Source: a virus. Taken from it: DNA of 17,347 bases. Within the stretch, counting starts at the first letter, position 1. Every line of letters begins with the position of its first letter. The notes beneath the pieces were generated by a model, which saw only the letters and a list, made by a program, of their open reading frames with translations, did no database searches and was not told the origin of the DNA. Shown here one piece after another: positions 6,063 to 17,347 of this stretch. The stretch is from the IMG/VR virus record IMGVR_UViG_3300045988_161160; one strand, 5' to 3'. The position numbers and the translations under genes are program-made.

Positions 6063-7142
6063 ATGGCAAAAAAAATCGTACGTGGTATCACTGATATCAA
6101 AACAATCAATAATCAAGACTTTGACACAAACAACGTTAATGACCTTTTATCAGACGGTCAGTACAATTACATCCACCGAAAGAAAGGGAAAGATGAAGAA
6201 TACCACAATCTAACAGACAACATCAAAACCATTTCATCTGATAATACCGACCTGTTAGCCGTCACTAACAATAACAAAACAACAAATACCGCAACATTAC
6301 ACCCCAAACATGATGCCCAAAAAGAGCAAGTGCTAGAAAGCACACGAAACACTATTTCTATCCATCATGGCACAAATGGAACAGCTGAAAAAACAACAGT
6401 AGATACAAACCCTGAAAAAGTTTTGGAACATAGCAACCTTCAAACAACTTACGGTATTTCAAAAGCAACAGCTGGAAACACAACAACATTAGGACTTGAA
6501 TATAAACGAATAGAAACACCATTTGATTTAAACAATCTTGTCAATGGGTGTGTTAGATCTAATTTATTTATTCACGCACCAAACACCAACAATTGGTGGT
6601 TTGTTAAGTCATTCTCTGAAGGAACCTTCGCAATTCAAACAGCAACTACTTTTGACGATACTAACACAACATATGTGCGCCAAAAAAAGAATAATGTTTG
6701 GAGTGGATGGCGTGAGCAAGTTGGTGACAAATCAATTATTGATGGTTTATTGAATACCAAACAAAACACACTACAAAATAACATGTCAATTGGTGTAGTT
6801 GGAAATGGGTTATGTCAATTATACGCTTTAAAACAAACGTACTCACATGATAATGGTGTTTTGAAAACACATGTCAAAATTGTTTCACAAAATACTAGCA
6901 TTAGTACTAATGAAGAGGAATTTAACTTTACTCTTAAAATCAATCAAGGTTCTCAAGTTGCTACTTTCACTCTTAACACACACGACAAAATTAAATTCAC
7001 CAATATTATCACTGCTTACGGTGTAGAAAACGCAGTAAGAATTAATGGGTGTTTGTTCACCTTAAGCGATTCAACTCTAACAGTTTCAACTGAAGCGAAT
7101 ACAGAAAGTAATTACGTTATTAGCTTCTCAGATATCATCTAA
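6063..7142 (+). CDS. Thr/Asn-rich protein, 359 aa; receptor-binding or tail-fibre candidate
   Basis: SD AGAAAGGAAAAA then ATG 6063. Composition typical of adhesin-like tail proteins. Last gene before terminator 7148-7176. Confidence 0.35.
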   Translation: MAKKIVRGITDIKTINNQDFDTNNVNDLLSDGQYNYIHRKKGKDEEYHNLTDNIKTISSDNTDLLAVTNNNKTTNTATLHPKHDAQKEQVLESTRNTISIHHGTNGTAEKTTVDTNPEKVLEHSNLQTTYGISKATAGNTTTLGLEYKRIETPFDLNNLVNGCVRSNLFIHAPNTNNWWFVKSFSEGTFAIQTATTFDDTNTTYVRQKKNNVWSGWREQVGDKSIIDGLLNTKQNTLQNNMSIGVVGNGLCQLYALKQTYSHDNGVLKTHVKIVSQNTSISTNEEEFNFTLKINQGSQVATFTLNTHDKIKFTNIITAYGVENAVRINGCLFTLSDSTLTVSTEANTESNYVISFSDII

Positions 7143-7147
7143 TAAAT

Positions 7148-7184
7148 AACACCCGTTTAACTACGGGTGTTTTTGTGGTATAAT
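7148..7184 (+). promoter_or_regulatory. Terminator (AACACCCGT-ttaact-ACGGGTGTT plus TTTT) immediately followed by an extended -10 TGgTATAAT (7176-7184)
   Basis: 9-bp GC-rich stem with T-tract. TGnTATAAT abuts the T-tract. The next gene starts at 7212. Confidence 0.55.
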
Positions 7185-7211: not shown

Positions 7212-8987
7212 ATGAAATTATCACAATTCACCTTGTACAAGAATACGAATTTCACCGACATGCAAAATACTTTGCATTTCAACTCAAACAGTGAGCGTGA
7301 TGATTGGTTTACGAGTTATTTTACTGGTAATAATGTTATCAAGTTCACACACCCATTTAATTTCCGTTATGACAGAGGTACTCTAAAAGTGCCAATGGAA
7401 ATGAATTACTTACAAGGCTTTAACTATTGTAAGTTTATCGACGGTTTTGACGGAAAAACCTATTATGCTTTTATCGTTAAAACTAGTTACCTAAATGACA
7501 GAACAACCCAGTTAGACTTGATTATTGATGTTGTTATGACGTTCACACAAGGAAGTGTTATACAAAATCTTCAAAACGTTGAAGTTATCAGACAACACCT
7601 ACCCATGCAAGAACTGATTAACCGTGAGGAGTTCTTACGAAGTAACAACGATACACTACCAACTTCAACGATGAGATTTGTTGACCCTCGCTCATGGGTG
7701 GTTCAGAAAGAGGGCACAACACCTGAAGACTCAGTAGCCGGGGTTGATTTTAATGAAGTCATGTATATTATTCAAAGTGCTGTTGATTTAACGGCTGATT
7801 TTGGTTCTGAGGACAAACCAAAAATGACAACAGCTACAGGTGGAACATATGACAGCATAACATCAGCTGTTAATTTATATTTGGTTGATGGTGATAAACT
7901 TGATAAGCTTTTATCAAAATTGTCTAATTATCCATGGATTACCCAGAACTTTAAAACCATTGTTAAGGTGCCTAAAAGATTCTTAAAATTAGATGAACTC
8001 CTACCAGTTGATGTTAAGGGAATTAACTTATATATGATGACAGCTGGCGCTATGACAAAAGACGTTGTGTTACCATTTAACATCACGAAATCAAAAATTA
8101 AAGAAGCTATTCATCTTAAACAACATGAGAATTATCTTATTCGGGATAATGTGATTAATTTTTATTTAACTGACTATCGTGGTAACCAGCTTAATTTTGA
8201 AACTAATAAAATTACAGATAAGAACGATATTGTAGCCACATGCGTTTTCGGTGCTTTTAATGAGATTGATGTCTACTCACTTCAATATGGGCAACGTAGT
8301 GAGACTAAAAAACTTCATGGTTATTATCGTGACAACCAAATGAGTATTACTACATTCGATAATGTCCCTGTAATGATTGATAACTACAAACTTAACAAAG
8401 CTAACTCAGCTTATTCCCGTCAACTTGAAAATTCAAGAACTTTAAGTGGTCGTATTGAAGCTATAACAAACCCTAATAGTTCTGTAAAAGACAGACTATT
8501 TAACGCTGTTTCAGTCTATTCAAATGTTTTCTCTGGGGGTCTAGCTAGTGCGCCTGCTAAGGGAGCTGGATTGTTTGCTGATGAATATGAATACTTCAGA
8601 AATCAGAAAGCTCAAATGAACCAATGGAAAATATCACCACCAACAATTTCTGAAGGCTCTTATTCAAACACACCGCTTTCTAAAAAAGGTGATTGGGGTA
8701 TCTGGTTAAAAGTTTCAAAGATCAGTTATGAAGAATTAGACTCACTAAGACGTTATTACGGAAATTTTGGACATGAAGCCATGCCAAACGACAATCAAAT
8801 TTTCAACGTCAATTCCATGAGTAAAGCCAATTGGGTACAATTTAAAGGAAATTACTGGATTGACGACATTGACCGTGAACTATTTGACCAGCTGAAAACA
8901 CTGTTTGAGGGTGGTGTACGTTTGTGGCACAACTATAACGACCTATCTTCACGAAGTGAAATGGCTGATAATAATGTGATTAATTAA
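7212..8987 (+). CDS. Tail knob / distal tube protein, phi29 gp9-like, 591 aa
   Basis: SD AGAAAGGAG then ATG 7212. The track's GTG at 7167 lies inside the terminator and is rejected. Recalled gp9 N-terminal block ...WFTS... / ...KWFYAFVTELEF...FEIDVLQTWMF parallels DDWFTSYF / KTYYAFIVKTSY...LIIDVVMTFTQG here. Size is near gp9 (599 aa). Confidence 0.55.
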   Translation: MKLSQFTLYKNTNFTDMQNTLHFNSNSERDDWFTSYFTGNNVIKFTHPFNFRYDRGTLKVPMEMNYLQGFNYCKFIDGFDGKTYYAFIVKTSYLNDRTTQLDLIIDVVMTFTQGSVIQNLQNVEVIRQHLPMQELINREEFLRSNNDTLPTSTMRFVDPRSWVVQKEGTTPEDSVAGVDFNEVMYIIQSAVDLTADFGSEDKPKMTTATGGTYDSITSAVNLYLVDGDKLDKLLSKLSNYPWITQNFKTIVKVPKRFLKLDELLPVDVKGINLYMMTAGAMTKDVVLPFNITKSKIKEAIHLKQHENYLIRDNVINFYLTDYRGNQLNFETNKITDKNDIVATCVFGAFNEIDVYSLQYGQRSETKKLHGYYRDNQMSITTFDNVPVMIDNYKLNKANSAYSRQLENSRTLSGRIEAITNPNSSVKDRLFNAVSVYSNVFSGGLASAPAKGAGLFADEYEYFRNQKAQMNQWKISPPTISEGSYSNTPLSKKGDWGIWLKVSKISYEELDSLRRYYGNFGHEAMPNDNQIFNVNSMSKANWVQFKGNYWIDDIDRELFDQLKTLFEGGVRLWHNYNDLSSRSEMADNNVIN

Positions 8988-9000
8988 AAGGAGGAAATAA

Positions 9001-10524
9001 ATGGGAGCAACACAAGAACAAATACAGACAGTTATGAGACAAGAAGTTGGAAACGATTTTGGGATTTCAAGAGACACTATCTATAAAACCTTTCCTAATA
9101 TCCCAACAGGTCGTTTCGCCTATCTGTTAAACGATGAGCGTAGTGCTTTTGATAAAATTTGTGATATTATTGAAAGCGAGGGAGTGTCACCAGCCGTTTG
9201 GGTGGCCTATGAATCATCGGAGGGCTATAACAGTGAGCTAGGGTGGTTAAACCATACTTACTGGCAAGGCGATGTTTATCAAGATGCTAGGGCAGTAGCA
9301 AAATGGCTAAAAACAAGTGTTGGTAGCACACCAGCATGGGATGACCCATATGGTGGTACAGTTGGTGTTGTCCCTCCCGAGGTTATGGAAGCTGGTAATG
9401 CTGAATTTAACAGCTGGCCAGCTGGAACCATTGGAAAAACTTATACGGGGGGTACAGCTGCTGCCGCTTGGGGGATGTGGTATCCTGAAGCACTTTCAGC
9501 TAAGGTCAACGGTGTTCAAGATTATGGTAACCCTCTAGAGCGAATGGCTGATTTGATTTTCAATGTTTGGGGTGGTAAGGTTGATGGAAAACCTGCTGGA
9601 GACCCAGCACCAAAACCAAACACTGAACAACAGGTAGAAATCAAAGAAGATAATTCCGATAAACGTAAAGGTATGCTAGAAGCTCTCAATAAAATGTTTG
9701 CCATGTTAAAAGACATGTTCAACCAAAATGTATATACCGCTTCTGAACAATATATGTTTAATAAAGTCGTTAAGTTAACAAAAAACATGAATTTATGGCG
9801 AGTTCGTTTATCTGATGAAGCGCTTGACGAGGTTAAAAAGACATTAGAAGACGCTATTAATACAGTATTAAAAGACAAAGTGACTGTAACAACAGGTACA
9901 AGTAATGGTGATGTTAAGCCTAACGAAAACACACAAAATACACAAAACAAGCCAACCACTGACCGAATCCAAAAGGCACTTTCTGACATTGCTGGATTTA
10001 TTGGTGGTGGGATGCCTGGAGCTAACTTTGGAAGTGGGGACGGAAACGGAAACGTTGAAAGTCAATGTTATGCCCTTTCAGGTTACTTTGCTGGGTTAGT
10101 TAGTGGTTATACTTGTGCGCTTTGTTATAGTGGTAAATTTCAAACGCTACCTCAAGTCGGTGATGGTTTTAACGCTTACGCTTTGTGGAATGGATGGAAT
10201 TGGAGTGTGGCTGGAGCCCATACGCAAGGCTATCAAGGTATAGCCATGCCCGCAAGAGATTTGAAAGTAGGTATGATTTTCTGTACAGCCGCTTGGCAAA
10301 ATGGTCCTACAGGTTCTATAGATGGCGGTGGTAATGCTTATCTAACAACTTATGGTATTGGTCACACTGGTGTTATCGAAAGTTTCACGGACACAACAGT
10401 TACAACACTTGAACAAAATGCTTATATTTCTGGTGGTTCGATTGCCCCAAGACGTGTGGCAAGAATTACATATCCTAGAGACGCTTTTCTAAACACTGTT
10501 AGCGGTGTTGTTTGGTGGGACTAA
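9001..10524 (+). CDS. PlyCA-like peptidoglycan hydrolase, 507 aa: N-terminal glycosidase-like domain, helical linker, C-terminal CHAP domain
   Basis: CHAP catalytic motifs ...ESQCYALSGYF... (Cys) and ...GIGHTGVIESFTDTTVTTLEQN... (His). The latter closely parallels the recalled PlyCA C-terminus ...GHTGIIESWSDTTVTVLEQN.... The Gly-rich linker and overall three-part architecture match PlyCA. Confidence 0.65.
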   Translation: MGATQEQIQTVMRQEVGNDFGISRDTIYKTFPNIPTGRFAYLLNDERSAFDKICDIIESEGVSPAVWVAYESSEGYNSELGWLNHTYWQGDVYQDARAVAKWLKTSVGSTPAWDDPYGGTVGVVPPEVMEAGNAEFNSWPAGTIGKTYTGGTAAAAWGMWYPEALSAKVNGVQDYGNPLERMADLIFNVWGGKVDGKPAGDPAPKPNTEQQVEIKEDNSDKRKGMLEALNKMFAMLKDMFNQNVYTASEQYMFNKVVKLTKNMNLWRVRLSDEALDEVKKTLEDAINTVLKDKVTVTTGTSNGDVKPNENTQNTQNKPTTDRIQKALSDIAGFIGGGMPGANFGSGDGNGNVESQCYALSGYFAGLVSGYTCALCYSGKFQTLPQVGDGFNAYALWNGWNWSVAGAHTQGYQGIAMPARDLKVGMIFCTAAWQNGPTGSIDGGGNAYLTTYGIGHTGVIESFTDTTVTTLEQNAYISGGSIAPRRVARITYPRDAFLNTVSGVVWWD

Positions 10525-10528
10525 ATTA

Positions 10529-10565
10529 AAGACCTCTTTAAAGGGGTCTTTTTTTATGGTATAAT
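10529..10565 (+). promoter_or_regulatory. Terminator (AAGACCTC-tttaaa-GGGGTCTT plus T7) followed by an extended -10 TGgTATAAT (10557-10565)
   Basis: 8-bp stem (one G-U) plus T-tract; a TGnTATAAT promoter directly downstream, ahead of the holin gene. Confidence 0.55.
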
Positions 10566-10587
10566 ATTATAAGAAAGGAGAATAAAT

Positions 10588-11022
10588 ATGGAAGAATTAA
10601 TTAAACTTTTCCAAGATGGAGAGCTTCCTCAAATGGCACAATGGTTATTACTACTTAACATTATCGATGTTGTTACTGGCTTTATTAAAGCTGTTGATAC
10701 TAAAACAGTTTCAAGCAAAGTTATGAAACATGGTGCTTTAACAAAATTAGTTATTTGGATTGTGGTTTTCGTTAGTGGAATTGCTTCATCATATTTTAAA
10801 ACAGACTTATCATCTTATGTTATTGGATATTATCTAGTAATGGAAATTATTTCTATTTTAGAGAACGGTAGTGAATTTATACCTATCCCTGAAAAACTAA
10901 AAAATATTTTAAATACAAATAAAGATAATAAGACAACAGAAGATAATACAACAGAAGATAAAAACAAATCATCTGTTAATGATGAAATTTTGAATTATAT
11001 TAAAGAAAAAGGAGAAAAATAA
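10588..11022 (+). CDS. Holin (phage_holin_4-like), 144 aa
   Basis: SD AGAAAGGAG. Predicted transmembrane segments (WLLLLNIIDVVTGFIKA; LVIWIVVFVSGIASSYF; VIGYYLVMEIISIL) and a charged, low-complexity C-terminal tail. The motif IDVVTGF...K..SSK...G..KK resembles the holin_4 family. Confidence 0.6.
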   Translation: MEELIKLFQDGELPQMAQWLLLLNIIDVVTGFIKAVDTKTVSSKVMKHGALTKLVIWIVVFVSGIASSYFKTDLSSYVIGYYLVMEIISILENGSEFIPIPEKLKNILNTNKDNKTTEDNTTEDKNKSSVNDEILNYIKEKGEK

Positions 11023-11231
11023 TGAGTGATATTGTATTTAATGTGGCAGACAAACAGCCTTACGACTGCCTATATTTTGACACCAATTACGGCTACCGTG
11101 CTTGTTTGAATGGAAAACGTTTAGACATTGCGGACATTAAAACTGTTCTGGCTTTAAAAAATCAATTCGGATTGCCTGAATTGAATATCAGTTCAAAAGA
11201 CGTTGGGCGATTTGAAAAATGTATCTATTAA
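11022..11231 (+). CDS. PlyCB-like cell-wall-binding lysin subunit, 69 aa
   Basis: Overlaps the holin stop as TAATG, with SD AAAGGAG. ...YGYRACLNGKRLDIADIKTV...NISSKDVGRFEK parallels recalled PlyCB ...YGYRAFINGVEIGIKDIETV...NISKSDVEAIRK. Recollection only, not a search. Confidence 0.5.
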   Translation: MSDIVFNVADKQPYDCLYFDTNYGYRACLNGKRLDIADIKTVLALKNQFGLPELNISSKDVGRFEKCIY

Positions 11232-11240
11232 CATTAAAGA

Positions 11241-11266
11241 CTAGCTTTAAAAGCTAGCCTTTTTTC
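11241..11266 (+). terminator. Intrinsic terminator between the convergent arms: CTAGCTT-taa-AAGCTAG followed by CCTTTTTT. Overlaps the 3' end of the polymerase gene.
   Basis: Perfect palindrome plus T6. The polymerase stop (11254-11256, minus strand) lies inside the stem. Confidence 0.55.
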
Positions 11267-13566
11267 ATATAATATTTGTATTCTTCTAGTAGCTCATTAA
11301 TAGACTTATGAGCATTACTAACATTAGAATTACTAGTCAAATCATTAATTCCTATTGTACCATAAGGTGTTTCAACGTACAACAATATATGACTATCTTG
11401 TTGTATGATATCATCTCTTACATGTTCTTTGATTTTGTTTAAGGCTTCTTCGACCTCTGTTGTGTATTCTGTTTGATAGCTAACACCTTTTTCAAGCATG
11501 GCTTGTGACTCATAGATTGAAATGGTATTAATCTCGTTTCTTATAGAGCGTGTTGATGGTACCATGACACCGTCAGTAAAAAAGGTTCGTACAAAAAACT
11601 CAAAGTCATCATTACTACGTTTTATCCAATCTTTTATCAAAGCTTTAGAAATACCACCAGCACGAACAACAATACCATCATCATAAAGACAATACTTTTT
11701 ATGATTAAAAGCATAAAATTTTGTAATGTTTTCATGTTCAATATCCCAAGCGCCCAAATTCATCTTGTGAAACATTGATTTAGGAAATTTAGCTAAAGCT
11801 CTCTTATCCATATATAAACTATCGGTATCAGCATACCAGAAATACTCATCAATCTCTGATGGTTGTAAATATTGTAGTGGTGATAAGAGGTTATGAAAAG
11901 CAAACGCTGTTACACCTGCTGAGAAAACGATATTTCTTTCTTTATTTGTAAAACCGTCTTTAATATTGACAAACTCATTACCTTGACGTTTAAAATAATC
12001 AAAATGAATTCTAAGCGCCGGAACTCCGTAAATACCATTAAGCAGAACTTTAGAACCCTGAACCATTTCTTCAGAGAAATTGTATTTATCTGGTTTAGGT
12101 GTGTTTGTCATTTTTATATTTAAAGGGTCTATTGTGTCCATTTCACAATCAAGTTTGTTTTTCATTTTTCCTTGTGTTTTTATGAAATAGTTACGAGCTA
12201 TGACATCACGTGCCCCGAAATATTCAGTTTTAAAAACAGCAAAGTTTTCACACACCAGTGATGTGAATTCATGTTTTGTAATTTTTTCTAGTAATCTTAA
12301 AAATACAGTGTTAAAATAGACAAGACCATTTTTAGAATTGTAATATTTAACAATAGCACTTCGAATAACTATTGATTTTACATGTGATAAAATTTGTTCG
12401 TTAGCGTTTTTAATGGTCATTGTGAAAAATGTAAATACATCATCGTTTTTATAATCAAATGACTGAGTAGAACGTTTTCCATTAAAAGCTATTAAAAACG
12501 TTGGTAATTTTTCTTTATACATGACTGTTGGGTATGAGCTGTTTAAGTCAATTGAAAAGCCATCACTGTTTATAATTTTTCCTACATAAGCATCATTGTA
12601 TAAGTTTAATCCTCCTTTATAATAAGACCTAAAATAATCAAATCCGGTCATTCCACAAATATTGTAATCGTTAAGCACTAGATGAGAAAAACGACCATCT
12701 GTTTTTAACAGCTGAAACTCTGCTAATTTGTTATATTGTGAATATTCCTCTTTAATATTTTGAGTGAAAGTCATCTTAGAAAAATCAAAACCATAAAATA
12801 ATTTTTTATAATGTTTAACTCCTAACGCTAATATAATAACGTCATTTCTAATATAGATTAATTGTTGTTCATTAAGACTATCGAAGCAACGCTTAACATA
12901 TGAATTAATGTCATTTTGAGACATGTCATAATCCTTATCAAACGCTTGATAATCAAAATCAGTTTTTAAATACTCTTCAGTTATGAGATGATTATTTAAA
13001 AGCATATTTCCTAGAACTTTAATGCTAGTGTTCATTTTTTTAAAGCTGTCCGTAAAAACAATTTTTCTACCACCGATAAATGCTTTAACGGAAACATTGT
13101 TAGATGATTTAATACGGCTTTCAAAAATACAACCTTTATTTTTAGTGTCGGTGTCTATGTTAGCTATTTTCTTATTATGCTCGTTTGCTTCATTATTTAA
13201 TGATTTGTTATATTCGTTAAATATAGGTAAGTTAAAGTGTTTTGATAACTCTTCAATAGCAAAATGGTTATCAAATTTTTCACCGTTGTGAAAAATCATT
13301 TCAAATTCTAAAGATTTTCTGATTTTCTTTTCTTTAACTTTTTCGAAAAAATCAACAAAATTATTAAACACGGCTACTGATGGAAAGTCATCATCATCTT
13401 TAAAATAGGCGATAGCTAACGAATAGGTATATGAATGGTATTTTGATGGTTTTTCTTTACCAGCTTTTTTATTGACGGTGAGTGTTTCAATGTCACAAAA
13501 AAGCTGAACACTTTTAAAGCCTTTCAGCTTTTTCAAATAACTAAGTAGTTCAGCTTGATTGTTCAT
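11254..13566 (-). CDS. Protein-primed family-B DNA polymerase, 770 aa
   Basis: All motifs read from the translation: Exo I DIET (res ~25); Exo II HNGEKFD (~93); Exo III YIRND (~238); motif A DLNSSYP (~339); motif B KVLLNGIYG (~506); motif C YADTDS (~578); KxY HKKYCLY (~623). The C-terminus is ~70 aa longer than in the phi29 enzyme. Confidence 0.9.
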   Translation of the reverse strand: MNNQAELLSYLKKLKGFKSVQLFCDIETLTVNKKAGKEKPSKYHSYTYSLAIAYFKDDDDFPSVAVFNNFVDFFEKVKEKKIRKSLEFEMIFHNGEKFDNHFAIEELSKHFNLPIFNEYNKSLNNEANEHNKKIANIDTDTKNKGCIFESRIKSSNNVSVKAFIGGRKIVFTDSFKKMNTSIKVLGNMLLNNHLITEEYLKTDFDYQAFDKDYDMSQNDINSYVKRCFDSLNEQQLIYIRNDVIILALGVKHYKKLFYGFDFSKMTFTQNIKEEYSQYNKLAEFQLLKTDGRFSHLVLNDYNICGMTGFDYFRSYYKGGLNLYNDAYVGKIINSDGFSIDLNSSYPTVMYKEKLPTFLIAFNGKRSTQSFDYKNDDVFTFFTMTIKNANEQILSHVKSIVIRSAIVKYYNSKNGLVYFNTVFLRLLEKITKHEFTSLVCENFAVFKTEYFGARDVIARNYFIKTQGKMKNKLDCEMDTIDPLNIKMTNTPKPDKYNFSEEMVQGSKVLLNGIYGVPALRIHFDYFKRQGNEFVNIKDGFTNKERNIVFSAGVTAFAFHNLLSPLQYLQPSEIDEYFWYADTDSLYMDKRALAKFPKSMFHKMNLGAWDIEHENITKFYAFNHKKYCLYDDGIVVRAGGISKALIKDWIKRSNDDFEFFVRTFFTDGVMVPSTRSIRNEINTISIYESQAMLEKGVSYQTEYTTEVEEALNKIKEHVRDDIIQQDSHILLYVETPYGTIGINDLTSNSNVSNAHKSINELLEEYKYYMKKG

Positions 13567-16172: not shown

Positions 16173-16690
16173 TATCTTAACTCCAAATTTTCATAAAATA
16201 CAATAACAAATGGGTTAGCTCTACCACCTCCGTATTTACGTTGGATTTCATCAAGTCTTTTTGTTAGTCGTTTAATAGATTTGTCAAGCCCTCTAGTAGA
16301 AGTGATACCCTTACCATCATAATAATCGTTCATGACTGATCTAATAATGTTTTCAATTCTTTGACTAAGCTCTGGTCTATAATATGACCTATCAAATCTA
16401 AAATATTCTTGTAACTGGTCAACAGTGTTAAAAAATTTATTGCTAGCAATATATTTTACATCGTCCTCAGTTAGATTTGTTAAATTAACAACACCTGGCT
16501 TTGTAATAACAAAAGCTAAGCGATTAAGGTTGCTTTCAGCTAACATGATTAATTTATCATTTTTAGGTTGATTTGGGTCAAACAGTGTTGATTTGATTGA
16601 TAGGGTAGAGCGAAAAGTATTTCTTGGATTATATGCTTTACCTGTTTTTAGGATTTTTTTAGCTTGTTTTTTGCGTTGACGTTTATTCAT
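16172..16690 (-). CDS. Basic protein, 172 aa, with a highly cationic N-terminus (MNKRQRKKQAKKILKTGK...); DNA-binding. Best, but weak, candidate for the terminal protein.
   Basis: Start overlaps the upstream gene by 8 nt (ATGAATAA). Composition only: a basic N-terminal segment, as also present in phi29 TP. No sequence similarity to phi29 TP was detectable by eye. Confidence 0.5.
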   Translation of the reverse strand: MNKRQRKKQAKKILKTGKAYNPRNTFRSTLSIKSTLFDPNQPKNDKLIMLAESNLNRLAFVITKPGVVNLTNLTEDDVKYIASNKFFNTVDQLQEYFRFDRSYYRPELSQRIENIIRSVMNDYYDGKGITSTRGLDKSIKRLTKRLDEIQRKYGGGRANPFVIVFYENLELR

Positions 16691-17105
16691 GTTTTAACCT
16701 TTCAATTTCAAAGTTGATGTAATCTTTAGCTTTTTCAAGGTCTGACATAACGTTCTCACCTTGTTTCTTACCAGCACGACACGCATATTTAACAACGTTA
16801 CCAAGGTTAAAATTAAGGTCTTGGGCGTTGATAAGGTCAATTGGTTGGATTGTGCCTTGGTAGTGCGATGGAGTTGTTTTAATATGTTGTTCGTTGTAGA
16901 TTGGATTAAAAATATAATAATAGCTGTTTAATTTATTGAAATAATGTTCAACCCCGTTATCACCTTTAAGAAAAAACCCTTTTTTCAAAATATCAGTTAT
17001 ATCATATTGTTTTCCTTTAGTAAAATTTGCTAAATCTGAATATTCGCATTCTACTCTTTTGACGTTTTTCAATAGTTTAATATCCATGTTGTTTACCTCT
17101 TTCAT
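16683..17105 (-). CDS. First right-arm early protein, 140 aa. The C-terminal ~65 aa match a conserved small phage protein family, which I recall as Pfam DUF3310.
   Basis: Motif ...PSHYQGTIQPIDLINAQDLNFNLGNVVKYACRAGKKQGENVMSDLEKAKDYINFEIERLK matches the recalled family pattern HY..IEPID.I...NF..GN.IKY..R...K.....DL.KA..YL. SD AGAGGT at the ITR edge, then ATG 17105. Confidence 0.55.
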   Translation of the reverse strand: MKEVNNMDIKLLKNVKRVECEYSDLANFTKGKQYDITDILKKGFFLKGDNGVEHYFNKLNSYYYIFNPIYNEQHIKTTPSHYQGTIQPIDLINAQDLNFNLGNVVKYACRAGKKQGENVMSDLEKAKDYINFEIERLKHE

Positions 17106-17117
17106 CTTTATGATTAT

Positions 17118-17147
17118 ATTATAGCAGACTGAGTTTGCTTTTGTCTA
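17118..17147 (-). promoter_or_regulatory. Right-ITR copy of P2 (TGcTATAAT) immediately upstream of the 140-aa gene
   Basis: Identical ITR sequence. SD AGAGGT precedes ATG 17105. Confidence 0.5.
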
Positions 17148-17229
17148 GTAAAAAATGGTTGAAAATGTTTTCTGAAAACAGTTTCATAAGTTTGTTAACC
17201 GTGTTGCTAATGAAAGCTTGTTTTCATTG

Positions 17230-17257
17230 ATTATACATATTAATTAACAAATGTCAA
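17230..17257 (-). promoter_or_regulatory. Right-ITR copy of P1 (TTGACA-N16-TATAAT) directing leftward early transcription
   Basis: Identical ITR sequence on the opposite strand. Confidence 0.6.
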
Positions 17258-17347
17258 GATGAAAATGTTTCCAATTGTTTACAGATAGTTACATGAAAGG
17301 GGGGATAGGGAGAAAAAAACGATATGGGGTAGAATGCGAATATTCAG

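Follow-up and report, generated by a model that had tools for sequence, protein, structure and literature searches.

The lysin PlyC was long regarded as unique to phage C1. It consists there of two separately encoded subunits, PlyCA (orf11) and PlyCB (orf9) (structures 4F88 and 4F87). The C1 genes run in the order holin, plyCB, lil, plyCA, which had been given correctly in the preliminary description of the present locus, as a check of NC_004814 confirmed. In activity PlyC ranks near the top of the known phage lysins (PMC6356687). Work on C1 suggests that PlyCA and PlyCB fold together; the docking platform is provided by N-terminal residues of PlyCB (PMC10604209, from which the domain limits of PlyC were also taken).

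The tail-tip lysins (LysT) of the staphylococcal picoviruses Andhra and P68, Andhra gp10 (8EJ5) and P68 gp11/Orf11 (6O43), have the same three-part architecture as the lysin described below, and Andhra gp10 is seated in the tail knob via its linker helices (PMC9710869). Both genes lie in a late operon adjoining the knob and holin genes, in the order knob, holin, lysin, while the endolysin of these phages is a separate amidase and PlyCB is missing. The enterococcal Rountreeviridae Idefix and SHEF14 carry tail-associated spike lysins with PlyCA-like GyH and CHAP domains (IDF_13 and ORF11, respectively), to which SHEF14 ORF11 adds the domains D2 and D3; Idefix also encodes a separate amidase endolysin, and a PlyCB homologue was not found there. 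The nearest published relatives of the genome analysed here are the Streptococcus equinus phages vB_SbRt-pBovineB21 and pBovineS21, in which a rearranged order of the lysis genes is annotated (ON759209 and ON759210) and has been discussed (PMC10241823, Sci Rep 2023).

Genome and gene order

The window, that is, the whole stretch of DNA analysed (17,347 nucleotides), was identified as a complete linear 17.3-kb genome of the picovirus type, because 263-nt inverted terminal repeats stand at both of its ends. It belongs to the Rountreeviridae, in the streptococcal C1-related lineage. Its relevant features, apart from the lysin gene, are the following.

1-263, no strand: left inverted terminal repeat, with its partner at 17085-17347 (263-nt arms, 99% complementary)
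7148-7184, plus strand: terminator-like hairpin (7148-7171) and extended -10 box TGGTATAAT (7176-7184), where the knob-lysin transcription unit begins
7212-8987, plus strand: tail knob gene (Pfam Caud_tail_N, E = 4.9e-19; phrog_2248 tail protein, E = 2e-122)
10528-10565, plus strand: intrinsic-terminator hairpin with T-run (10528-10556), overlapping an extended -10 promoter TGGTATAAT (10557-10565)
10588-11022, plus strand: holin gene, 144 aa (Phage_holin_4_1, PF05105, E = 3.8e-23; 41% identity to the C1 holin)
11022-11231, plus strand: gene of the PlyCB-like small subunit, 69 aa, whose start codon overlaps the holin stop (TAATG)
11254-13566, minus strand: protein-primed type B DNA polymerase gene, the convergent neighbour (54% identity to the C1 polymerase)

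The order is therefore knob, lysin, terminator/promoter, holin, plyCB and then the convergent polymerase gene, and knob, lysin, holin and plyCB follow one another in the same way in 15/15 other distinct clade genomes (pBovineB21, pBovineS21 and 13 from metagenome data). The lysin, holin and plyCB genes of the window together fit into 2.2 kb. As in C1, plyCB lies directly 3′ of the holin gene and overlaps it. C1 plyCA, however, lies 3′ of lil on the polymerase strand, whereas the lysin gene here stands behind the knob gene, upstream of the holin gene, on the structural-gene strand and in a transcription unit separate from that of plyCB. The preliminary description had implied that this arrangement was new; it was published in 2023, so the order by itself is little news, and the coupling of plyCB to the holin gene already exists in C1. 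The rearranged order is usual throughout a large group of gut phages, and the position of the lysin behind the knob gene is the family norm, from which C1 departs. The PlyC-type lysis genes of this genome are real but ordinary. A simple block inversion relative to C1 was considered and rejected: inverting the cassette fails to yield the C1 order, so that at least two rearrangements are needed.

pBovineB21 and pBovineS21 share order and strands with the window, but carry lil after plyCB. Identity to the window reaches 83-84% for PlyCB, 71-72% for the knob and 74-75% for the polymerase, but just 56-59% for the holin. The protein annotated as PlyCA in these two phages ends in a Phage_lysozyme2 domain (PF18013), and its N-terminus is unrelated to that of the present lysin and at most weakly CHAP-like. 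A host assignment via bacterial genome contigs was discarded, the sole matches being two Clostridia-labelled contigs of metagenome-assembled genomes, which we read as mis-binned phage contigs.

Transcription units

The knob protein is 31% identical to the Andhra knob gp12 (E = 1.5e-88), and the knobs of Andhra and P68 are homologous to it. Its mechanical ORF opens with GTG at 7167, but translation probably begins at the ATG at 7212, which has a Shine-Dalgarno sequence in front of it. The hairpin and extended -10 cassette 5′ of the knob gene was found in 15/16 clade genomes. Between the knob stop and the lysin start lie 14 nt with a Shine-Dalgarno sequence as the sole element, consistent with the earlier statement that the lysin follows right after the knob gene, and the junction is tight in all 14 clade genomes that have both genes on one strand. 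Two genomes, L011 and L013, have an inverted knob gene on the strand opposite to the lysin gene, so co-transcription of the two is not obligatory. The separate terminator and promoter proposed between lysin and holin were also recovered: the terminator at 10528-10551 (-12.7 kcal/mol, z -3.4) and its promoter are kept in 11/11 genomes compared, with stem letters that vary and pairing that is maintained. The motif TGNTATAAT was counted 7 times, where 1.96 occurrences would be expected. Judged from these signals, knob and lysin on the one hand and holin and plyCB on the other form two adjacent late transcription units, and at the head of each stand a terminator hairpin and an extended -10 promoter.

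The lysin

The lysin ORF was confirmed at 9001-10524 on the plus strand, as were the holin and 69-aa ORFs at their positions given above, and encodes 507 aa, divided as follows.

9001-9615, plus strand: PlyCA-N/GyH-type glycosidase-like domain, residues 1-205, carrying E74, N84 and H85
9616-9960, plus strand: central helical linker, residues 206-320, with helices at 219-246 and 272-289
9961-10524, plus strand: CHAP peptidase domain, residues 321-507 plus stop codon, with C356, H455 and N473

The PlyCA-like three-part layout described earlier was borne out. BLASTP against C1 PlyCA gave E = 8e-29 at a low 25% identity across 515 columns, phmmer against PDB sequences matched residues 4-505 to PlyCA (4F88, E = 4.7e-22), hhalign of a 40-sequence lysin profile against PlyCA returned a probability of 100% (E = 1e-64), and Foldseek matched the lysin model to 4F88 with E = 2.6e-17. 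The best PDB matches in phmmer were the tail-tip lysins Andhra gp10 (8EJ5, E = 4.8e-39) and P68 (6O43, E = 2.4e-36), which held ranks 1 and 3 in Foldseek (8EJ5, E = 2e-20); hhalign against the tail-tip lysin gave E = 2.4e-69. The lysin is homologous over its full length to both PlyCA and the tail-tip lysins Andhra gp10 and P68 gp11.

As in C1 PlyCA, a GyH-type domain, a helical docking region and a CHAP domain follow one another. The first matches P68 Orf11 (E = 2.4e-36; 6O43 with TM 0.86 in Foldseek) and is 24% identical to the PlyCA GyH domain, and residues 5-282 are 32% identical to Andhra gp10. The linker, modelled by AlphaFold with low confidence (pLDDT 33-65), aligns to the PlyCA docking domain at 23% identity and is the counterpart of both this domain and the knob-inserting linker of Andhra gp10. 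The CHAP domain is 38-40% identical to that of PlyCA, and the AlphaFold model is confident in this region. Residues E74, N84/H85, C356, H455 and N473 correspond to the catalytic residues E78, N87/H88, C333, H420 and N438 of PlyCA and are unchanged in all 40 lysin homologues. The local Pfam models PlyCA_N and CHAP both stayed below threshold on the 507-aa protein (CHAP E = 2.8e-4), so that the protein was placed in its family on the strength of phmmer, hhalign and Foldseek; a newer PlyCA_N model, available in precomputed annotations, matches most close homologues of the lysin, the closest ones weakly.

The PlyCB-like protein

Homology of the 69-aa protein to PlyCB, as had been proposed, was confirmed. 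BLASTP against C1 PlyCB gave E = 4e-12 at a low 37.5% identity, phmmer against the PDB returned PlyCB entries exclusively (E = 7e-6 to 1.5e-4), and a clade profile matched PlyCB over its full length (E = 3e-10); the Pfam model C1_PlyCB scored 29.8 bits, slightly below its cut-off of 30.5. In Foldseek, the top 16 matches of the AlphaFold model were all PlyCB chains with a probability of 1.00 (TM 0.65-0.80, rmsd mostly 1.5-2.0 Å), whereas the next match had a probability of 0.25. The signature named earlier for PlyCB occurs literally as YGYRACLNG, DIKTV and NISSKDV. The protein thus resembles C1 PlyCB in size (about 70 aa), fold, YGYR motif and N-terminal strand, where the motif MSxIxFNV is conserved.

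Among the four wall-binding residues of C1 PlyCB targeted by mutation, Y28 and R29 correspond to the conserved Y25 and R26. K59, however, is replaced by S58 (with a K adjacent) and R66 by E65, a residue that does not vary within the clade. The exchange R66E in C1 PlyCB abolishes wall binding, so the ligand or the binding pocket probably differs from that of C1 PlyCB.

Roles in exit and entry

The region is very probably the module for lysis and the tail tip in the complete genome of a picovirus of the Rountreeviridae, with a PlyC-type lysin/PlyCB pair that would act at exit by analogy with C1 and at entry by analogy with Andhra and P68. If C1 is a guide, the N-terminal strands (MSxIxFNV) of a ring of eight PlyCB would bind the central helices of one lysin, and the resulting wall-targeted holoenzyme would pass the membrane via the holin and lyse the cell. 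The separate transcription units of lysin and plyCB count against this, given the joint folding suggested for the C1 subunits. If Andhra and P68 are, some copies of the lysin may go into the tail tip, held there by the very same linker, and degrade the wall at entry. Of the ORFs compared with Pfam or PHROGs, none was recognised as a further peptidoglycan hydrolase, and for this reason service of the lysin in both entry and exit is plausible. The putative entry role suggested earlier is strengthened because the best solved-structure matches are virion tail-tip lysins. The literature searched contained no mention of PlyCA as part of the C1 virion. A dual role in which a dimer plugged into the knob serves as entry lysin and the same protein, docked to the PlyCB ring via the same helices, as endolysin, may hold with a chance slightly short of even. 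If it does, PlyC-type lysins would have arisen when a picovirus tail-tip lysin recruited a separately encoded wall-binding ring and the usual separate endolysin was lost, and the linker would be a docking module with two purposes; its conservation despite freely exchanged catalytic domains would then be explained.

The 507-aa protein might instead act solely in a PlyC-like endolysin, as its catalytic subunit with no part in the virion, and stand behind the knob gene through compact packing, a reading that we regard as a real if doubtful possibility. The literature describes PlyCA solely as an endolysin subunit. The opposite strands of knob and lysin in L011 and L013 also favour this reading, as does the tblastn search for the Andhra tip protein gp1, which found no homologue in the window, although gp1 is small and fast-evolving, which makes its absence uninformative. 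Against it stand the linker, which is homologous to the one that gp10 inserts into the knob, the homology of the knob to gp12, the lack of another wall hydrolase for entry in the above scan and the tight knob-lysin junction in the 14 same-strand genomes.

The converse, a lysin confined to the virion tail tip with the 69-aa protein in some other holin-linked role and not as its partner, is improbable. It would fit the tail-tip lysins at the top of the PDB matches, the co-transcription of lysin and knob with a terminator before holin and plyCB, and the changed counterparts of K59 and R66. But the above scan of the genome gave no alternative candidate for an endolysin, and staphylococcal and enterococcal relatives encode a separate amidase for this purpose; moreover, conservation extends to the PlyCB fold, its N-terminal docking strand and the YGYR motif, and the linker aligns to the docking domain of PlyCA. 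That the region was recently inserted from a foreign source, which would account for its odd order and its high G+C content (0.40-0.41 across 8500-10500 in the composition profile, against 30-35% elsewhere in the window), has next to no probability. It was rejected on GC3, in which the lysin gene, at 0.287, does not differ from its neighbours (0.28-0.31); the G+C excess lies at codon positions 1 and 2 and hence most likely stems from amino-acid composition. The same gene also occupies the same place in all relatives.

Exchange of catalytic domains and presence or absence of lil

The clade shows catalytic domains swapped around the conserved central linker, the sole segment common to the present lysin and the pBovine-type lysins (48-59% identity; hhalign 99.8%). 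In a mirror-tree (Mantel) comparison of 16 genomes, which linkage and shared ancestry confound, the linker correlated with PlyCB (r 0.48, p 0.001) and with the knob (r 0.54, p 0.0004); the partial correlations, confounded by linkage as well, were 0.21 (p 0.08) and 0.36 (p 0.004), respectively. This covariation is weak. Three genomes (L004, L017 and L019) combine knobs that are 92-95% identical with linkers that are 45-74% identical. The PlyCB proteins of the window and its many gut-metagenome relatives fall into at least 88 clusters at 90% identity. These genomes offer a natural panel of PlyCA/PlyCB pairs with varied wall-binding residues, exchangeable catalytic domains and a common linker, which could aid lysin engineering. 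The comparison also sharpens the question of whether PlyCA-type proteins are both tail-tip entry enzymes and endolysin subunits.

The absence of a lil equivalent, unlike in C1, was upheld: tblastn of the window with three lil proteins gave nothing better than E = 0.08. The gene behaves as a clean indel of about 310 bp that is absent from 4/16 distinct clade genomes, and in the relatives that carry it, it lies 3′ of plyCB and never between the two lysin genes. lil is a selfish HNH gene that a genome may or may not carry, and its lack in the window reflects a recurrent presence/absence polymorphism. In the window, 22 nt only separate the plyCB stop from the end of the polymerase ORF, and the following element was noted there.

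11241-11257, no strand: hairpin where plyCB and the DNA polymerase gene converge, folding on both strands

This hairpin sits at the site that lil occupies in the relatives.

Identity of the lysis proteins

The preliminary description read the lysis region of the window as encoding a PlyCA-like lysin, a holin and a PlyCB-like protein, and homology searches bore out these assignments.

Lysis genes of the window (+ strand)
9001-10524, lysin ORF, 507 aa
10588-11022, holin ORF, 144 aa (Phage_holin_4_1, E 3.8e-23)
11022-11231, PlyCB-like ORF, 69 aa

Lysin residues 4-505 align with PlyCA of phage C1 (PDB 4F88) at E 4.7e-22 (phmmer), BLASTP gave 25% identity (E 8e-29), and a 40-homologue lysin profile matched PlyCA by hhalign at E 1e-64. 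Identity by domain is 24% for GyH, 23% for the docking domain and 40% for CHAP. The catalytic residues E78, N87/H88, C333, H420 and N438 of PlyCA correspond to E74, N84/H85, C356, H455 and N473 of the lysin, which show no variation in the 40-sequence alignment. Recent import of the lysin gene (G+C 0.42) was rejected, as the excess comes from the first and second codon positions and not from codon usage (GC3 0.287).

The 69-aa protein is 37.5% identical to C1 PlyCB (BLASTP, E 4e-12), its clade profile finds PlyCB over the full length (E 3e-10) and its PDB matches are PlyCB entries only; its score is 0.7 bit below the Pfam cut-off. Its AlphaFold model is of moderate confidence (pLDDT 66), and the top 16 Foldseek matches of the model are all PlyCB chains, with TM 0.65-0.80 and rmsd 1.5-2.0 A for most. 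As in C1, the holin and plyCB genes overlap, here by the start/stop sequence TAATG. In C1 PlyCB, the N-terminal residues form a beta-platform that takes the docking helices of PlyCA (PMC10604209). This N-terminal motif is conserved, reading MSDIVFNV in the window and MSKINVNV in C1; F6 does not vary in the clade and N7 hardly does, and the lysin linker aligns with the PlyCA docking domain. By analogy with C1, the PlyCB-like monomers would assemble as a ring whose N-termini carry the docking helices of the lysin. The position of R66 in C1 PlyCB is occupied by an invariant Glu in the clade and that of K59 by Ser; since the R66E mutation abolishes binding by C1 PlyCB, the wall ligand of the window protein is probably different from that of C1. 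The clade alignment (A3) shows two invariant cysteines, C16 and C28, and a nearly invariant one, C67, none of which C1 PlyCB has.

Genome type, gene order and lil

The window ends in 263-nt inverted terminal repeats (99% complementary) and has the two-armed layout of the protein-primed picovirus type, with capsid, connector, collar, fibre, knob and lysis genes on the + strand and the type B DNA polymerase, encapsidation ATPase and small early genes on the - strand, indicating that it is a complete Rountreeviridae-type genome. Its closest phage-collection records are two phages of Streptococcus equinus, vB_SbRt-pBovineB21 and pBovineS21, which align to 22-30% of the window at a nucleotide identity of about 76-77%. 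Phage C1 is a more remote relative, with 54% identity in the polymerase and 37% in the knob.

The C1 order given in the preliminary description, holin-plyCB-lil-plyCA, is correct, and the lack of a lil equivalent was likewise confirmed, as no lil-like sequence was found anywhere in the window. The gene order of the window is already published and not new. In the annotation of the two pBovine phages, the tail (knob) gene is followed by PlyCA, holin, PlyCB and lil, and the polymerase is convergent; their 2023 description reported that, compared with C1, the four lysis genes are inverted and also rearranged among themselves (PMC10241823). Among 16 distinct genomes compared (the window, the two pBovine phages and 13 metagenome contigs), all have the order knob-lysin-holin-plyCB. 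Metagenome data contain at least 88 clusters of relatives of the PlyCB-like protein (67-89% identity to it), and at least one contig examined comes from a human gut metagenome. The locus adds one representative, lil-less and mosaic, to the pBovine-like streptococcal picoviruses, a kind that is both abundant and already published. Origin of the order by one block inversion was discarded, as this cannot turn the window order into that of C1.

The lysin as a tail-tip lysin homologue

The top PDB matches of the lysin are not PlyCA, but Andhra gp10, annotated 'tail tip lysin (spike)' (8EJ5, E 4.8e-39), and P68 Orf11 (6O43, E 2.4e-36). The fold agrees (Foldseek E 2e-20 and 5e-15 against tail-tip lysins; TM 0.86 to 6O43), as does the profile comparison with tail-tip lysin (E 2.4e-69); the linker is a low-confidence region of the AlphaFold model. 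Staphylococcal and enterococcal picoviruses carry the tail-tip lysin gene in their late operon, close to knob and holin, so that the position in the window is the family norm and C1 the outlier. Andhra gp10 forms a tail-tip dimer whose linker helices enter the knob hexamer (PMC9710869), and by analogy with Andhra and P68, part of the lysin pool would be incorporated into the tail tip; a search of the window for the Andhra tip protein gp1 gave no homologue. The preliminary description had suggested a virion-entry role for the lysin. Pfam and PHROG scans of the window ORFs detected no second peptidoglycan hydrolase, which leaves the lysin as the sole detected candidate for both steps, and its action at both entry and exit would be the economical reading.

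Domain shuffling around a conserved linker

The pBovine 'PlyCA' and the window lysin share only the central linker (48-59% identity; hhalign 99.8%, confined to window residues 220-324). The C-terminus of the pBovine protein is Phage_lysozyme2 (PF18013, E 7.5e-21), and its N-terminus, without PlyCA_N similarity and unrelated to the window lysin, is at most weakly CHAP-like. On these alignments the protein is not a PlyCA orthologue outside the central linker, and the published annotation is misleading.

Genes for pBovine-type 'PlyCA' (also in L004, L006, L008, L013 and L017)
L001, 6617-8044, - strand
L002, 6794-8221, - strand

These proteins combine peptidase-like and glycosidase-like domains in the order opposite to PlyCA. 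Other lysins of the clade join a C1-type PlyCA_N domain (52% identical to C1) to a window-type CHAP domain. By a Mantel test the linker co-varies weakly with the knob and with PlyCB, a signal confounded by linkage. The remaining interest lies in this docking linker, conserved amid shuffled catalytic domains, and in the hypothesis of a dual entry/exit role for PlyCA-type lysins.

Transcription units and mosaicism

A separate terminator and promoter between lysin and holin had been proposed, and both were located; the knob and lysin genes form their own transcription unit.

Regulatory features around the knob-lysin unit
7148-7171, hairpin 5' of knob
7176-7184, TGGTATAAT following this hairpin
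10528-10551, terminator hairpin 3' of lysin (-12.7 kcal/mol, z -3.4)
10557-10565, extended -10 box TGGTATAAT 5' of holin

The cassette of hairpin and TGGTATAAT before the knob gene is kept in 15/16 genomes and that between lysin and holin in the 11 compared, where stem letters vary and pairing is retained. TGNTATAAT occurs seven times in the window (1.96 expected). The mechanical knob ORF begins at GTG 7167, within the promoter cassette; ATG 7212 is likely the true start because it has a good Shine-Dalgarno sequence and gives the N-terminus of relatives (MKLSQF...). In two independent metagenome contigs (L011 6254-7999, L013 4379-6124, both - strand) only the knob gene is flipped with respect to the lysin and the structural genes on either side. 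It has its own TGnTATAAT promoter and terminator there, and the knob-lysin co-transcription present in the other 14 genomes is thereby broken.

The lil gene forms a clean insertion/deletion of about 310 bp that begins at the plyCB stop codon; the window, L011, L013 and the L019-L021 group lack it, and the other 12 genomes carry it. Genomes L005 and L014, the closest to the window for knob and lysin (94-97%), carry lil, and their holins are just 53-54% identical to that of the window, whose holin (70-74%) and polymerase (85-86%) are nearest L017 and L019. The window is therefore a recombinant mosaic, and its lack of lil is polymorphism of an ordinary sort in a selfish HNH gene. The breakpoint falls close to the lysin-holin promoter cassette (TATGGTATAATATTATAAGAAAGGAG), which is highly conserved and may serve as a recombination site.

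Other features of the window

Additional features
1633-2787, + strand, major capsid protein, 63% aa identity with Staphylococcus epidermidis phage Andhra
2794-2820, both strands, strong palindromic hairpin of 10 base pairs (AGCTAGCTAG...CTAGCTAGCT) directly 3' of the capsid gene, terminator-like on either strand
6063-7142, + strand, 359-aa late protein just 5' of the knob unit, no Pfam/PHROG match
16683-17105, - strand, early DUF3310 ORF, 140 aa (E 4.9e-15; PHROGs label of relatives 'nucleotide kinase')

Megablast matches of the capsid region to staphylococcal picoviruses reach about 75-86% nucleotide identity, and cross-genus conservation of the capsid protein is far above that of tail genes (knob 31%). 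The slot of the 359-aa protein is highly variable between relatives; in L005, L015 and L016 it holds a 473-aa protein with a weak GDSL-lipase match, recalling the Andhra gp6 hydrolase. The 359-aa protein probably binds a receptor or modifies the wall.
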